Below, one piece after another: positions 3,606 to 12,807 of a stretch of 41,440 nucleotides of DNA. Numbering within the stretch: position 1 is the stretch's first letter; each line of letters opens with the position of its first letter. This DNA comes from a virus, in IMG/VR virus record IMGVR_UViG_3300002461_000793, positions 1 through 41,440 of that record. One strand, 5' to 3'. A model generated the notes under the pieces. The model saw nothing but the letters and a program-made list of their open reading frames with translations. It searched no databases and was not told the DNA's origin. A program made the position numbers and the translations under genes.

Positions 3606-3866
3606 CTAGAACGTAGTGGGTTGAGCGATGCCCCGCATCACGGCCATGAAGCCCTTCTGCAGGTCCGTCGCGCCGATGCTGATCCAGCGCTGGTCGAGCG
3701 CGATGCCCGGGTCTGACATGATGCTGGGGTTCAACTGACAACCCCGCAGCTTTTCAATGTACGCACCGACCAGTTCGGCAAGTGCCTTACCCTCGTTCAT
3801 CAGCTCGACTTCCTTCTCGCTGAGCTGGCGATAGCCGGTGATCTTTGGCTGCTGAAACGTTTCCAT
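3606..3866 (-). CDS. Small helical protein (86 aa); candidate Acb2/Vs.4-like cyclic-oligonucleotide sponge
   Basis: CTAGGAGAG lies upstream of the ATG. The sequence GYRQLSEKEVELMNEGK...DQRWISIGATDLQKGFMAVMRGIAQP matches my recollection of the Acb2/Vs.4 family layout. This is memory based, not searched. Confidence 0.6.
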   Translation of the reverse strand: METFQQPKITGYRQLSEKEVELMNEGKALAELVGAYIEKLRGCQLNPSIMSDPGIALDQRWISIGATDLQKGFMAVMRGIAQPTTF

Positions 3867-7860: not shown

Positions 7861-8195
7861 GCTCCCTCCCTTTTCTCAGACTCCCACTCCAAAAGGATGG
7901 CGGCTCCAGCATACACCATAGCCCCCAGCACCTCGTTGACAAACTCCGTTCCGACCTTGGTGGACGCCGCTTCCTCCAGCTTCTTGGCGGCCTGGCCAGT
8001 GAGAAACCCGCGGCCGTGAAGCTTGCCATAGTGGTGCCACGGCTGCTCCATGAAGGGGACGGTGTTGCCTCCGTGCCTCTGCCCCTTGCCGTACATAGCC
8101 TGGTTGATGGCGGCCATGAAGACAGGATACAGCGGGTGGGACGTCATGGCTTCTGTGGCGCCGTTGACGTCTTCAATCTCTTGACTCTTCTGCAT
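7842..8195 (-). CDS. Hypothetical protein (117 aa)
   Basis: Trimmed to ATG 8195, which has GGAGG 6 nt upstream. The motif YGKGQRHGG...FLTGQAAKKLEEA recalls helical phage nucleotide-hydrolase-like proteins. I cannot assign it. Confidence 0.6.
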   Translation of the reverse strand: MQKSQEIEDVNGATEAMTSHPLYPVFMAAINQAMYGKGQRHGGNTVPFMEQPWHHYGKLHGRGFLTGQAAKKLEEAASTKVGTEFVNEVLGAMVYAGAAILLEWESEKREGAWSTLS

Positions 8196-8838
8196 AGAGC
8201 ACCTCCAAAAGAACAGGGTAAGTAGCGAGCAAGACATCTCGGCATTTCTCCGCGATTTCGCGATGCTCCTTCTGCGTACCTGGCTCGCACCGCAGTTGAA
8301 CGTAGTGGATCCAACTCCGCACGGATCCGGCCATGTACATCCTGGAAGGCGTCATGCCCTCAGGCAGAACTGCTCTGGCCACCTCCTTGGCGACCCCAAG
8401 CTCAAGGGCCTGGTTGTAGATGGAGCTGGCGAACGCGGCAACGTCGCGCTGCTTGCGTGTCCACCAGTTGCCCAGCGCTTCGTCGTCATTCTCCAGTGAC
8501 CCCTGTCGGTTCTTGGTGTCTTGTAGCCTTGCCTCCCTCACTTGGTAGGTGTCGGCCACCTTCGAGTAGCGCTGGCTGAACTCCTGAAAGCTGAAGGACC
8601 GGTGGCGAAGGATCTGTCGGGCGATGTCTCTGGTCGTCTCGATGTACATCACCATGTGAGCCATCTCGAACGGCGACCAGTGGTTGTTGCGTGACATGTA
8701 CCCCAGCAACCTTTCTGCCGTGCCGTGGTTGTCCTGGTTCTCGGGGTTGGACACGCGAGCCACGAACGCAATGAACTCGAGTGGGAGCATGTCCGTGGTG
8801 GGGGTAGTCAAGGCCACCAGCTCGACGACCGGCTTCAC
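8173..8838 (-). CDS. thyX: Flavin-dependent thymidylate synthase ThyX
   Basis: ThyX signature RHRSFSFQEFSQRYS (RHRxxSxxxxSxR). Confidence 0.95.
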   Translation of the reverse strand: MKPVVELVALTTPTTDMLPLEFIAFVARVSNPENQDNHGTAERLLGYMSRNNHWSPFEMAHMVMYIETTRDIARQILRHRSFSFQEFSQRYSKVADTYQVREARLQDTKNRQGSLENDDEALGNWWTRKQRDVAAFASSIYNQALELGVAKEVARAVLPEGMTPSRMYMAGSVRSWIHYVQLRCEPGTQKEHREIAEKCRDVLLATYPVLLEVLYAEESRD

Positions 8839-9056
8839 GAGTCCACCCTTACCAGGCCGTTGATAAACTCGAGAAGGTCGCCCTTGGCCAGCGGGATGTC
8901 GGCCTTCTCAATGTCGACCTCGCTACGCTTGAGGCTATGCTTCTCCATCCATTCCTTCTTGACGGCGGTCGCGCAGGCCTGAGTTTCGGCGTAGTGCTTC
9001 AGATGATATACGCCGTTCTCATCGCTGATGGCGGCTGTGACTTTGTAGCAACGCAT
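8835..9056 (-). CDS. Hypothetical protein (73 aa)
   Basis: Trimmed to ATG 9056, 1 nt after the upstream stop. Confidence 0.5.
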   Translation of the reverse strand: MRCYKVTAAISDENGVYHLKHYAETQACATAVKKEWMEKHSLKRSEVDIEKADIPLAKGDLLEFINGLVRVDS

Positions 9057-9057
9057 G

Positions 9058-9516
9058 TCATCCCCTCCTGCTGGCAAGTTCGTTGGCGATCTGGATCTCG
9101 TCCACCACGGCCCAATCCTCGCTGAGGATATCGGTCTGGCTGGCCAGCCATGGCACCTTGGCGCCGTTGGGGTAGGCCGGATGGTAGAGCGGGTAGACCA
9201 TGTAGATGTAGGGCAGCGTCATGTCTGACTTCGAGTCCGGCTCGCGAAGCCGCAGCCACATGTACTTGCCGTTCCACCCGGACCTTGCCACGGAACGCCC
9301 TGTCTTCAAGGCCTCCAGCGCCAGACCAAAGGTCATCTGGTCGATGGGCATGTAGGTCTCCTCAAAAAGGTCGCCCGGTAACCACGCCTCGTGTCCGTCA
9401 CCGTAGAGAACGCGGTACCCAGGAGTGGCGGTGTCGTTGCTCCCACCCTTGGTGAAGCGAATTTCGCGGTAGGCTGAGACCACCTTGATCCCGATGTACC
9501 TCTTCAACTCAGACAT
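9058..9516 (-). CDS. Two-domain protein: N4 gp49/Sf6 gp66-like N-terminus plus DUF2829 (Tad2-like) C-terminus
   Basis: N-terminal YIGIKVVSAY...GYRVLYGDGHEAWLPGDLFEETY. C-terminal MTFGLALEALKTGRSVARSGWNGKYMWL...PYIYM...VPWLASQTDILSEDWAVV, the classic DUF2829 pattern. Confidence 0.8.
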   Translation of the reverse strand: MSELKRYIGIKVVSAYREIRFTKGGSNDTATPGYRVLYGDGHEAWLPGDLFEETYMPIDQMTFGLALEALKTGRSVARSGWNGKYMWLRLREPDSKSDMTLPYIYMVYPLYHPAYPNGAKVPWLASQTDILSEDWAVVDEIQIANELASRRG

Positions 9517-9542
9517 GAAACCCTCCAGTTTTCATTGCGTGG

Positions 9543-9574
9543 AAAAAAGGGCCGAGACCACTTGATCCCAGCCC
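9543..9574 (-). terminator. Rho-independent terminator candidate
   Basis: The minus-strand RNA GGGCUGGGAUCAAGUGGUCUCGGCCC forms a stem (with G-U pairs) followed by UUUUUU. Confidence 0.55.
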
Positions 9575-9591
9575 TTGCCGCCAGCAGCCGA

Positions 9592-9801
9592 TTAGGCAGC
9601 TTCCTTGATGTCGAACACCAGGTTCTTGAAGGTTTCCTTCACGCTCTTCTTGACCAGCTTGTCTTCCAGCCGGTCCAGAATCTGCGACTCCACGTCCTTG
9701 ATCATGCTCACCACCTTCTTGGTGGCGTCCTTGACGGCCGCGGCGGTTTGCTTTTCCACGAGGGCGGCGACGGCCGGGTCTTCCAGAAGCTTCTTGCTCA
9801 T
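9592..9801 (-). CDS. Hypothetical protein (69 aa)
   Basis: Trimmed to ATG 9801, which has AGGAGA 6 nt upstream. Lysine- and glutamate-rich, predicted to be helical. Confidence 0.55.
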   Translation of the reverse strand: MSKKLLEDPAVAALVEKQTAAAVKDATKKVVSMIKDVESQILDRLEDKLVKKSVKETFKNLVFDIKEAA

Positions 9802-9885
9802 TTCACTTTCTCCTGTGTTGTCCTGCGTTCCGCTCAATTGCGTACTTACAGTCGGATGGTTTTTGCGTCGGGACGTTCCCTCAGC

Positions 9886-9915
9886 TGGGCTCGATCCTAT
9901 CTAGAACCGAGCCCA
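9886..9915. promoter_or_regulatory. 30-nt imperfect palindrome / 13-bp hairpin centred on TCTAGA
   Basis: TGGGCTCGATCCTATCTAGAACCGAGCCCA. As minus-strand RNA it forms 13 pairs (two G-U) around a 4-nt loop. No U-tract follows. It sits just downstream of the wHTH gene stop. Confidence 0.4.
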
Positions 9916-9925
9916 CTGTAAATAC

Positions 9926-10216
9926 TTACGAGTCGTATTTACTCTTTCTGTTGGGCTTCGTATGCTCCGTGTAGCCCTCGTTCTTCCAAACTCTCGTGTC
10001 AGAGTCGGGCGTGGGGAACCACCAGCCGGTCCCATCCTTCTCCACCACTACGTCTACTGCCCGGTGGGCGCGAAGGTGGTGAAGGGCTGCAGAGATCTGG
10101 GAGGAGTTTCTTCCTGTCATCTTGACCAGCTGCAGAACAGACGTGAAGTCTTCCTTCCTTTCTTGGAGGGCTTCTTCTACGAGCATGGTGGTGGTAGGTA
10201 CTTGTCTACGCTTCAT
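9926..10216 (-). CDS. Winged-helix DNA-binding protein (96 aa)
   Basis: SVLQLVKMTGRNSSQISAALHHLRAHRAVDVV has an HTH-plus-wing layout. GGGGAG lies upstream of the ATG. Confidence 0.6.
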   Translation of the reverse strand: MKRRQVPTTTMLVEEALQERKEDFTSVLQLVKMTGRNSSQISAALHHLRAHRAVDVVVEKDGTGWWFPTPDSDTRVWKNEGYTEHTKPNRKSKYDS

Positions 10217-10281
10217 GATCTTACTCCCCAGAAAACAGGAACATGGCCGTGTCGCTCGTCAGATCCGCGATTCAAGCGAGG

Positions 10282-10410
10282 TTAACTAAAAACCCAGTTG
10301 AGCATCATTATGTAGTGGTCTGAGCAACAGACGCACATTGTTTCCCAGTAGACTTCGGAATACTGGGAGGCCTCAACACACTGGTCGTAAATGAAAAGAT
10401 TGCTGTGCAT
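10282..10410 (-). CDS. Small cysteine-rich ORF (42 aa, not in the ORF track)
   Basis: AAGGAG lies 8 nt upstream of ATG 10410. My translation: MHSNLFIYDQCVEASQYSEVYWETMCVCCSDHYIMMLNWVFS. It fills an otherwise empty 206-nt low-GC gap. Confidence 0.4.
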   Translation of the reverse strand: MHSNLFIYDQCVEASQYSEVYWETMCVCCSDHYIMMLNWVFS

Positions 10411-10422
10411 AATAGGATCTCC

Positions 10423-10668
10423 TTACGCGCGAACGAGGATGTTGGCCCTGCCGAACTTGTAGACGCGGTAGGTCTGGCCGGCGGTCACGTACTGCTTGAC
10501 GAACTTCGCGTCGCCCGAGACTGTCTTCTCGGTACCGGCGTACCAGTAAGAACCCGAGAACTTGATGTTCTTGCCGTCAGCCTCGATGGAGACGTCGAAG
10601 GACAGGTGGGTGATGCGCGGGCCGCGGCTGGTCTTGATCTGCTGCGTGACGGTGTAGGTAGCTTGCAT
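10423..10668 (-). CDS. Hypothetical protein, predicted beta-rich (81 aa)
   Basis: The ATG has GCTGAGGGA upstream. It is the first gene after promoter-like element B. Confidence 0.65.
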   Translation of the reverse strand: MQATYTVTQQIKTSRGPRITHLSFDVSIEADGKNIKFSGSYWYAGTEKTVSGDAKFVKQYVTAGQTYRVYKFGRANILVRA

Positions 10669-10708
10669 TTTCGTTTCCCTCAGCGTGTTTGGTCAGTCGA
10701 TGATATAG

Positions 10709-10750
10709 ATTCTACACGCCTCCTGTGGGGTTGTACACAACTATTTTCAA
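10709..10750 (-). promoter_or_regulatory. Conserved promoter-like element B
   Basis: Minus strand: TTGAAAATAGTTGTGTACAAC-N-TAGAAT. TGTACA (10737..10732), a 17-nt spacer and TAGAAT (10714..10709). Confidence 0.65.
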
Positions 10751-12807
10751 TATTTTTTGCTTGTCTTCTGTCTGTTGTTCCATCCGTCCAAGTGCTTCAC
10801 CACCTCTTGCAAGCTGGCGTTCAGCCACTTGTCCGGCTGCCTGACCGCGTAGTACCTACCTTGGCTGCCGTCTCCCAGCCTTACTGGCCTACCACCCGAC
10901 ACCTGATGCAACCCGGCCCTTGCCAGCTCGCGGCTCAGCCCATTGGCCGTGGTCCTGCCCTTGCCCTCAGGATCATACAAGGCCAGCAGCTCAGATGACG
11001 TGAACAGGTCCTTCTGTATCTTCACGTTGCCCACCTTCAGCACGTGGTCAGGGTTCCCCATCAGGTCCCGAACCCAACTGGCAAGATCAGACCTTACGAT
11101 CGTCGTCATCCGGTCCTTGGCCAGCGTCCTGAAGGCAGGAGCCGCCGGATTGAAGTCGCCAAGGTCCAGCTGCAGAAGGTGGTGGAACACGGCAGCGGCG
11201 CCACCTGAATCCAGCCATAGGTCATACTCGACGTAGAACAACTCGGACAACGGCCCCACCTGTATCTCGTGCACAAAGTGCCTGCGGTCGTCATCCTCTA
11301 AGAAGAACGAATCCGGGTGGTTGGCGGTGAAGAAGTAGTTGATGCAGTCGGGTATCTCGTAGGTAGGGATGTACTTCTTGTTCACCCGGATCTTCTGCTG
11401 CGTGATCAGCTTCTTCAGGAAGTCGTTGTCCTGCCGCTTGTCTGACCCGGTGATGTCATCGCCCATGATGAACTGCTTGCCCTCAGCCCATTCGTTGAAG
11501 GACCCGTGCAAGTCCGCTTGGTCAATCTCCGTGAAGTTCTCGCCATAGATCCTTCCAAGCGTGTACCCCACCAGCGACTTACCAGTGCCGTGGCGCACGC
11601 CGTGGAACAGAACCGAGCTGTACATCTTCACCCCTGGGTACTGCAGCGGATACGCGCACCACCTGAGGAACCATCTCTTAGCCTCTGGCTCTGAGCCGGT
11701 GAACAGGTGGTCAATCAGCTTCGTGAAGGGATCTATGCTCCCTGCCTTCGGCTCTGCTCCCCATCCAGGCCATGTGTTGAACATGTCCAGCTTCCCATGC
11801 ACGAACTTCTCTGCCCCCGGCTTGTAGGTGATCTTATGCGCCTCAGTCCTCAGCGGCCATTTGAGCCAGTAGGCTGCGGCCGACACCGGGTTGTAGCTGA
11901 CAGATCCGTCCTTCGTCAGCTTCCTCTCTTGGTACGTGACCGGCGCCTGCAGGTGATCCTTGAAGGCTGACGGGCTTGCTTTGAACCCAGTGACTTGGTC
12001 CACCACCATCCCTGGGTCTTGCACGTACACGTACCTCTTGTTCAGTGACCACAAGGGCTTGGTCAGGCCCAGAGGTTCGGCGTCATGCAGCAGCTTGGCG
12101 AACATGTCGTTGGCTGATGGGCCTGCGAACGTGAGGAAGTCATCCAGCCCCACCTTCTTGAAACCCTCCAGCGAGGGCAGGCTGACGATGTGCGAGAACG
12201 CACCCCTACGGGCCAACTCCTCCGACAGGTCATGCAACGCCAGGCACACCAGCGGGTTGGTGACGTAGTCCGAGTCGAAGCAGATGTACACGTTCCTTCT
12301 GGCCCAGTTGATGGGTTCAAGGCTTGGCAGCCACTCCAGACCCAGCTTGTTGCTTCTCCAGTTGTACACGCCACCAAGGCCCACGGTGGGGAAGCCTTCC
12401 TTCGAGGCCTTGGCTGCCTTCAGCTCACCCTCTGTCAGGATGATGGGCCTGTCCACGTCTTCCACCAACGTCTTCCAGTTGACGGTAGCTGGGTAGTAAG
12501 CGACAGGAGCCGTGTTAGGTTCCTGCACGTACCTCACCTCCTTCTTGTCTGTCATCTGGTCGAAGCCAGCGGGCCTTTCAAGATACCGGAGACGATAGAA
12601 CGGCTTGCCGCCGGGCCAGTCCGTGATGGGCTCGCCTGTGTGGCTCATGTACTCGATCTTGAGACTGCAGAGTGGCTTGAAGGACGAATGCAGCGCCTGG
12701 GTCTTCGGACCATCCAGAGGTACCAGGTGGAGGCGCTTCCCGTCTTGCGGGGTGAGACCAGAGGAGGCAAGCTTGGCCTCGTACAGGTCTTGCAGCTTAG
12801 AGGCCAT
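10747..12807 (-). CDS. Primase-helicase (Toprim-like domain plus SF3/D5-type P-loop NTPase)
   Basis: Toprim-like VYICFDSDYV. Walker A HGVRHGTGKSLVG. Walker B-like FIMGDDITG. AGGAGG lies upstream of the ATG. Confidence 0.9.
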   Translation of the reverse strand: MASKLQDLYEAKLASSGLTPQDGKRLHLVPLDGPKTQALHSSFKPLCSLKIEYMSHTGEPITDWPGGKPFYRLRYLERPAGFDQMTDKKEVRYVQEPNTAPVAYYPATVNWKTLVEDVDRPIILTEGELKAAKASKEGFPTVGLGGVYNWRSNKLGLEWLPSLEPINWARRNVYICFDSDYVTNPLVCLALHDLSEELARRGAFSHIVSLPSLEGFKKVGLDDFLTFAGPSANDMFAKLLHDAEPLGLTKPLWSLNKRYVYVQDPGMVVDQVTGFKASPSAFKDHLQAPVTYQERKLTKDGSVSYNPVSAAAYWLKWPLRTEAHKITYKPGAEKFVHGKLDMFNTWPGWGAEPKAGSIDPFTKLIDHLFTGSEPEAKRWFLRWCAYPLQYPGVKMYSSVLFHGVRHGTGKSLVGYTLGRIYGENFTEIDQADLHGSFNEWAEGKQFIMGDDITGSDKRQDNDFLKKLITQQKIRVNKKYIPTYEIPDCINYFFTANHPDSFFLEDDDRRHFVHEIQVGPLSELFYVEYDLWLDSGGAAAVFHHLLQLDLGDFNPAAPAFRTLAKDRMTTIVRSDLASWVRDLMGNPDHVLKVGNVKIQKDLFTSSELLALYDPEGKGRTTANGLSRELARAGLHQVSGGRPVRLGDGSQGRYYAVRQPDKWLNASLQEVVKHLDGWNNRQKTSKKY

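Follow-up and report, generated by a model that had tools for sequence, protein, structure and literature searches.

A small gene in the early arm of this phage genome raises the question of whether its product is a sponge for an immune signal of the host and, if so, what the short domain fused in front of the sponge domain contributes. A preliminary description had read the gene as a DUF2829 (Tad2-like) domain joined to an N4 gp49/Sf6 gp66-like domain, and as a candidate immune-signal sponge that may be regulated separately from its neighbors. The window, by which we mean the whole stretch of DNA analyzed, is a complete virus record of 41,440 bp that carries direct terminal repeats. Its portal protein is P22-like, and since the nearest isolated relatives, which share 44-46% portal identity, infect Pseudomonas and Ralstonia, the host is probably a proteobacterium.

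The gene encodes a two-domain protein of a very large known kind

The open reading frame described earlier is indeed present. It lies on the minus strand at positions 9058 to 9516, begins with ATG and, by the list of open reading frames and the sequence itself, is a complete coding sequence for a two-domain Tad2-like protein of 152 aa plus the stop. A ribosome-binding site, GGAGGG, can be read off the sequence 4 nt before the ATG (9521 to 9526, minus strand). PHROG 872 matches residues 3-139 with an E value of 1.3e-29, and a homolog of equal length and 82% identity (P0002) is encoded on a 41.8-kb related phage contig. The protein ends in a 14-residue C-terminal tail (residues 139-152; 9061 to 9102, minus strand), in which the AF2 model places a helix at residues 140-150. 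Only the 82% relative shares the tail, which is missing from the other 75 aligned homologs. The gene is one ordinary example of a known and very large group, the N4 gp49-type Tad2 genes of PHROG 872.

The Tad2 gene sits in the leftward early arm of the genome. On its 5' side, on the same strand, are a primase-helicase gene (10747-12807) and four small orphan genes; on its 3' side, a 73-aa orphan begins 2 nt past the Tad2 stop and is followed by ThyX in the same direction. A megablast search of the region 8000-12000 against isolated phages gave no match.

The C-terminal domain belongs to the Tad2 family

The Tad2-like domain occupies residues 61-138 (9103 to 9336, minus strand) and was recognized by Pfam, by PDB matches and by its predicted fold. 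The DUF2829 pattern that had been claimed for the C-terminal part proved to be far beyond chance, with Pfam PF11195 (formerly DUF2829) matching over profile positions 1-73 of 73 at an E value of 5.4e-21 and 75.4 bits against a cut-off of 25. In a six-frame profile search of the genome, the Tad2-like domain scored 76.5 bits. When the full protein was searched against the sequences of the PDB, Tad2 proteins were the only matches, and five characterized Tad2 structures were among them: HgmTad2, also known as AcrIIA7 (2e-12, the best match), SPO1 Tad2 (8e-12), SptTad2, and ModTad2 in two entries.

We also predicted the structure with AF2 from an alignment of 77 homologs, which gave a pLDDT of 88.9 for the whole protein. 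The predicted model has the Tad2 fold, in which an antiparallel sheet follows an N-terminal helix. Its Tad2 half superposed on ModTad2 (9EIB) with a VIA Z score of 10.9 and an rmsd of 1.9 Å over 71 residues, and on HgmTad2 (8KBI) with a VIA Z score of 10.6, while the comparison of the model with SPO1 Tad2 gave a Foldseek probability of 1.00 and a target TM of 0.82-0.84.

Among the characterized proteins, SPO1 Tad2 (Gp34.65; 8SME/8SMF/8SMG, 8WJE), the founding gcADPR sponge, has the same family and fold, with approximately 40% identity at an E value of 8e-12. Like SPO1 Tad2, the protein of this phage has a short insertion between the two pocket motifs, with a tryptophan-to-tryptophan spacing of 42 here and 48 in SPO1. 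However, SPO1 Tad2 is a single 89-aa domain, whereas this protein adds an N-terminal module of 59 aa. HgmTad2 (8KBI-8KBM) has identical gcADPR-pocket residues, and SptTad2 (8WJD) is likewise a dual sponge; the insertion of HgmTad2 is 41 residues long, compared to approximately 17 in this protein.

The closest likeness in layout is to gp49 of phage N4 (YP_950527), which has the same two domains from end to end, its N-terminal 80 residues included (hhalign probability 99.9%, E value 3e-36, residues 4-137 here against 7-159 there). The two proteins differ in the form of the N-terminal module, which is long (approximately 72 aa) in N4 gp49 and short here, and in the C-terminal tail, which N4 gp49 does not have. 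Their neighborhoods differ as well, as N4 gp49 adjoins the PF13876 gene gp48 and the copy in this phage is without such a neighbor. In N4-like phages, this type of gene lies in an anti-signaling hotspot (10.64898/2026.06.04.730250).

The gcADPR-pocket residues are kept and the HgmTad2-type dinucleotide pocket is absent

The roles of individual residues in SPO1 Tad2 and HgmTad2 have been described (preprints 10.1101/2023.11.15.567273 and 10.1101/2023.05.01.538930). The key pocket residues are W25, N26, W73, S76, T78, and D79 in SPO1 Tad2 and W21, N22, G23, W87, L88, S90, T92, and D93 in HgmTad2, and the HgmTad2 mutants W21A/N22A and S90A/T92A/D93A lose gcADPR binding. In our alignments, all of the core pocket residues are kept, namely, W81, N82, G83, W123, L124, S126, T128, and D129. 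They fall into two stretches on the minus strand. The pocket loop S79-G-W81-N82-G83-K84 (9265 to 9282) corresponds to W21/N22/G23 of HgmTad2 and W25/N26 of SPO1 Tad2, and the pocket motif W123-L-A-S126-Q-T128-D129 (9130 to 9150) corresponds to W87/L88/S90/T92/D93 and W73/S76/T78/D79, respectively. Among the 77 two-domain homologs, G80, W81, and N82 are invariant and G83 is found in at least 90%, and the motif from W123 to D129 is invariant or nearly so. D67 and H71, which coordinate water in SPO1 Tad2, have no counterpart in this protein. Together, the profile match, the matches to solved structures, the predicted fold, and the pocket residues back the reading of this gene product as a candidate immune-signal sponge of the Tad2/DUF2829 family, which is well supported by sequence and predicted structure.

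HgmTad2 and SptTad2 have a second pocket, for cyclic dinucleotides, which is built from an insertion of 35-41 residues between β2 and β5 with K46, S47, and F70, and from N85. In this protein, the corresponding insertion is approximately 17 residues long, and the spacing from W81 to W123 is 42 residues versus 66 in HgmTad2. HgmTad2 N85 is replaced by V121 and L36 by K96, and R31 and D34 alone are retained (here R91 and D94). Binding of cyclic dinucleotides in the manner of HgmTad2 is not expected from this comparison. Since the insertion that forms the dinucleotide pocket is missing, we predict that the gene product would be a sponge for TIR-derived ADP-ribose signals only. Inhibition of CBASS by the Tad2-like protein, which had been raised earlier alongside Thoeris, is not favored, as the HgmTad2-type dinucleotide pocket is absent. 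As a family, Tad2 proteins can bind His-ADPR, N7-cADPR, or cUMP/cCMP as well (2025 preprint), and since the ligand range varies among Tad2 proteins, the exact ligand here is not readable from sequence.

The N-terminal module is related to RyR Tad rather than to PF13876

The preliminary description had assigned the N-terminal part of the protein to the gp49/gp66 family (PF13876). The fusion of two domains that it described is real, and the N-terminal motif that it quoted is present at residues 33-55, but the partner domain was misnamed. The module covers residues 4-58 (9343 to 9507, minus strand), consists of three or four β strands and one helix, and belongs to no Pfam family. The 59-aa fragment gave no match to PF13876 even at E values of up to 10. 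In the same Pfam scan, two positive controls, N4 gp48 and the PF13876 protein of locus L002, matched PF13876 at 9e-35 and 7e-23, respectively. Comparison of the profile of the homolog alignment by hhalign gave probabilities of 0.4% with Sf6 gp66 and 0.1% with the PF13876 protein of N4, and we rejected this assignment.

The misnaming likely arose from a mismatch in numbering. Pfam calls PF13876 "N4 Gp49/Sf6 gene 66," while the RefSeq record of N4 gives the name "gp48" to the PF13876 protein and "gp49" to a 160-aa "DUF2829 domain-containing protein" with two domains. PF13876 (N4 gp48, Sf6 gp66) is a small phage domain that is found as a partner or neighbor of Tad2, with no kinship to any part of this protein detected in our sequence comparisons, and the mismatch in its name can mislead annotation. 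In N4 (NC_008720, 7633-8486), the gp48 and gp49 genes abut, with the stop of one and the start of the other sharing a base.

We found a better counterpart in RyR Tad, gp68 of the Pectobacterium phage vB_PatP_CB1. The N-terminal module aligned with the N-terminal domain of gp68 (residues 4-70) with an hhalign probability of 96.2% and an E value of 2e-9, and phrog_9467 and phrog_872 were matched by both proteins. By these profile comparisons, the N-terminal portion is an unnamed module common to RefSeq gp49 of N4 and gp68 of CB1, which adds a new link from this module to a domain that has been studied experimentally. RyR Tad follows the same logic as the protein described here, a homologous N-terminal module followed by a C-terminal gcADPR-binding domain. 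Its sponge domain, on the other hand, is an all-helical RyR repeat (PF02026) that is unrelated to the Tad2 domain. The gene settings also resemble each other, in that the RyR Tad gene adjoins a DNA primase gene and the gene of this phage lies approximately 1.2 kb downstream of the primase-helicase. The C-terminal RyR-like domain of gp68 binds gcADPR and suffices for anti-Thoeris activity, whereas the N-terminal domain alone has no anti-Thoeris activity and is dispensable; in the crystal, the N-terminal domain forms a dimer in which strand β1 is swapped, with a five-stranded sheet (10.64898/2026.06.04.730250).

The predicted structure of the module has a pLDDT of 92.6 when modeled in isolation. 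In the isolated model, three strands and a helix are formed and residues 1-13 are left unpacked, whereas in the full-length model, residues 5-8 are packed as a strand. The unpacked residues are compatible with a swappable first strand, which we take as a weak hint and not as evidence. Of the positions in the module, 12 are nearly invariant and many of these are aromatic; this protein differs at two of the 12 (Y42H and S44A). The best VIA matches of the module were Tudor, chromo, and CarD-like domains, including the RID of Mfd, at Z scores of 4.6-6.0 that lie below the tool's meaningful level, and we regard them as a generic resemblance among small barrels only. A Foldseek search with the isolated model found no match at E values of up to 0.001, and a PDB sequence search with the module profile found nothing meaningful (best E value, 0.67). 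The label "Dec protein, OB-fold" was also considered for the module and rejected: its top look-up score was 0.85, below the usable level, and there was no Dec chain among the top 50 fold matches. A tblastn search of phages with the 59-aa module returned 4 weak matches only, the query being too short for tblastn.

The module is widespread and recurs beside several sponge folds

The two-domain layout (PHROG 872) is common to thousands of proteins. A length-restricted search with the full protein found 1,257 relatives at E values of up to 0.001, many of them with 89% coverage. A search for related loci with the single protein as the query found none; querying with the alignment gave the relatives, which are encoded in at least 576 IMG/VR stretches and at least 569 stretches of species-representative genomes that span many phyla. 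The two-domain form is also found among isolated phages, for example in N4-like coliphages, Klebsiella phages, vibriophages, and P22-like phages.

The module occurs with several partners, and domain positions were verified on representatives of its fusions. Among the candidates scored, the module profile matched 3,781 proteins longer than 130 aa, and the best 120 of these carried PF11195 in 114 cases, PF21825 in 3, and PF24729 and PF13876 in 1 each. A single-sequence search of 1.8 billion representatives recovered the same set of partners along with many free-standing copies of the module of 56-99 aa. By these counts, this unnamed module is very common, and where it has a partner, the two-domain Tad2 form predominates. 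In addition, we scanned 80 viral loci from IMG/VR (L005-L084, some of which are near-duplicates) with rough home-built HMMs. The module and Tad2 occurred together in 50 of the 80 (49 fused, 1 split), and Tad2 occurred alone in the other 30. A PF13876-like gene was fused in 2 of the 80 loci and immediately adjacent in approximately 15 (again with some near-duplicates), and an Acb2-like gene adjoined Tad2 in 4. PF13876 was fused to Tad2 in the protein P0069 and in one viral locus, and to the N-terminal module in two proteins (P0339 and P0140).

In L002 (2639-3471), a PF13876-like gene lies beside the Tad2 gene. In L036 (3053-3538), the module and Tad2 are in adjacent reading frames split by a stop, which is either a natural split or a sequencing frameshift. 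Three proteins (P0280, P0308, and P0330) have the module fused to PF21825, which is related to crAss001_48, and one of their clusters comprises 103 member sequences. Finally, a 160-aa metagenomic protein (P0202) consists of the module, a stretch like the first Tad2 helix, and then an Acb2/Tad1-hairpin domain (E value, 1e-16) that is 44% identical to the Acb2-like protein of this phage itself; judging by this arrangement, it seems to have arisen by recombination of two sponge genes.

The sponge domains seen with the module are thus Tad2, RyR Tad, and the Acb2/Tad1 hairpin, and at the level of sequence matches, the module recurs with at least three sponge folds that are unrelated to one another. 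Since PF13876-like and Acb2-like genes lie beside Tad2, these findings suggest small anti-signaling gene clusters and PF13876 as a candidate anti-defense family. We can also imagine, with more doubt than confidence, that the module is a portable adaptor specific to sponges. If it were, its partners PF13876 and PF21825 would be undescribed anti-signaling or sponge families, and the free-standing copies would serve in anti-defense as well. By association, then, both PF13876 and PF21825 are flagged as candidate anti-defense families.

A terminator-like hairpin precedes the gene

The preliminary description had noted a terminator-like hairpin on the 5' side of the gene and proposed separate regulation. 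The hairpin itself is backed by our fold calculation, but no promoter-like site that would give the gene a separate promoter was found. The hairpin spans 9543 to 9576 on the minus strand, directly after the stop of an upstream 81-aa gene, with a 13-bp stem (9576-9547), a 4-nt AAGU loop, and a U-run that extends to 9543. A 76-nt stretch containing it folds with a ΔG of -32.7 kcal/mol (z score, -3.2), and 0 of 200 shuffled sequences folded as well. It is absent from the list of a consensus terminator scanner. Between the U-run and the ATG there are only 26 nt, and a promoter scan from 9894 to the gene found no promoter-like site. Since none was detected in this 26-nt gap and needed genes such as ThyX lie farther along the same strand, expression by read-through is no less likely than separate regulation. 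The hairpin would then serve as an attenuator or stabilize the 3' end of the upstream transcript. Being directly upstream, the hairpin could limit expression of the gene.

Proposed mechanism and alternatives

We consider it probable, from the sequence comparisons and the predicted structure, that the gene encodes an N4 gp49-type Tad2 sponge for a Thoeris-type signal, with the N-terminal module as a dimerization or accessory domain. The Tad2 domain would most likely form a homotetramer, like the solved Tad2 proteins, and the GWNG loop and the WLASQTD motif would bury a TIR-derived ADP-ribose signal between protomers. This signal may be 1''-3' gcADPR or possibly His-ADPR or N7-cADPR. With the signal sequestered, the effector of a Thoeris-type defense would stay off during phage replication. 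The N-terminal 59 residues would be a separate, portable module, and because of their homology with RyR Tad gp68, we propose that they most likely serve as a β-strand-swapped dimerization domain or as an accessory domain and do not bind the ligand. The structure of the RyR Tad N-domain thus offers an idea for what the module may bring to a Tad2 protein, which is assembly or avidity. Cover against CBASS would come more plausibly from the separate Acb2-like gene of this phage, which is described below.

An alternative that we think unlikely is a double-function anti-defense protein in which the N-terminal module would act on its own target, whether a second signal molecule or a protein of the host. 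The strong conservation of the module, with its 12 nearly invariant and often aromatic positions, would fit such a target, as would its frequent occurrence as a lone ORF of 56-99 aa and its fusion to domains as different as Tad2, RyR, the Acb2/Tad1 hairpin, PF13876, and PF21825. Its nearest folds are Tudor, chromo, and CarD-like barrels that bind ligands or proteins, but these matches are weak (Z scores of 4.6-6.0), below the meaningful level, and no ligand pocket was identified. Moreover, the N-domain of RyR Tad is inactive against Thoeris when alone, and the C-domain alone is sufficient. To a non-immune role we assign a low probability: the protein would bind nucleotides or NAD metabolites in phage metabolism, or dock to RNA polymerase through its Tudor-like N-domain. 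In the early arm, which holds other nucleotide-metabolism genes too, the gene is found between the primase-helicase and ThyX, and the top folds of the N-domain include the RNA-polymerase-interacting domains of Mfd, CarD, CdnL, and UvrD. However, with Z scores of at most 6, these are generic small barrels, this type of gene occupies quite different genome positions in other phages, and all characterized PF11195 proteins are immune-signal sponges.

AcrIIA7 is a DUF2829 protein and, as HgmTad2, the best PDB sequence match (2e-12), so that an anti-CRISPR of the AcrIIA7 type has to be considered, but we give it hardly any weight. The group that solved the HgmTad2 structures failed to reproduce the inhibition of Cas9, both in vitro and in vivo, and saw sponge activity instead, and nothing points to a Cas9-type host for this P22-like phage, whose hosts are probably proteobacteria. 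It is also very improbable that this is a copy in decay or with weak expression that now does little. The terminator-like hairpin 26 nt upstream, with no promoter detected after it, and the change of two nearly invariant N-domain residues would point in that direction, but the frame is intact, the ribosome-binding site is strong, and the pocket residues are all in place. A full-length ortholog with 82% identity is present in the related 41.8-kb phage contig. Transcription must also read through the hairpin, as ThyX and other genes that look essential lie farther on in the same orientation. The sponge for a Thoeris-type signal is the reading that we prefer over all of these.

A second predicted sponge and small early genes

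An 86-aa gene at 3609-3866 (minus strand) had earlier been described as Acb2-like, and our searches agree. The PF24729 Acb2/Tad1 hairpin profile matched its product at an E value of 1e-14, above the cut-off, and the protein matched a solved 93-residue chain labeled p26 (8H2J), which we take to be the Acb2 of a Pseudomonas phage, over its whole length at 4e-12. Judging from these matches, the phage probably carries two sponges for different classes of signals. Two predicted sponges, one of the Tad2 type and one of the Acb2 type, suggest a host with both TIR-based and cGAS-like signaling defenses.

Four small early ORFs lie around the Tad2 gene at 8838-9056, 9595-9837, 9929-10216, and 10426-10668, all on the minus strand. 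These flanking ORFs have no significant Pfam or PHROG match, and they are candidates for further accessory or anti-defense functions.
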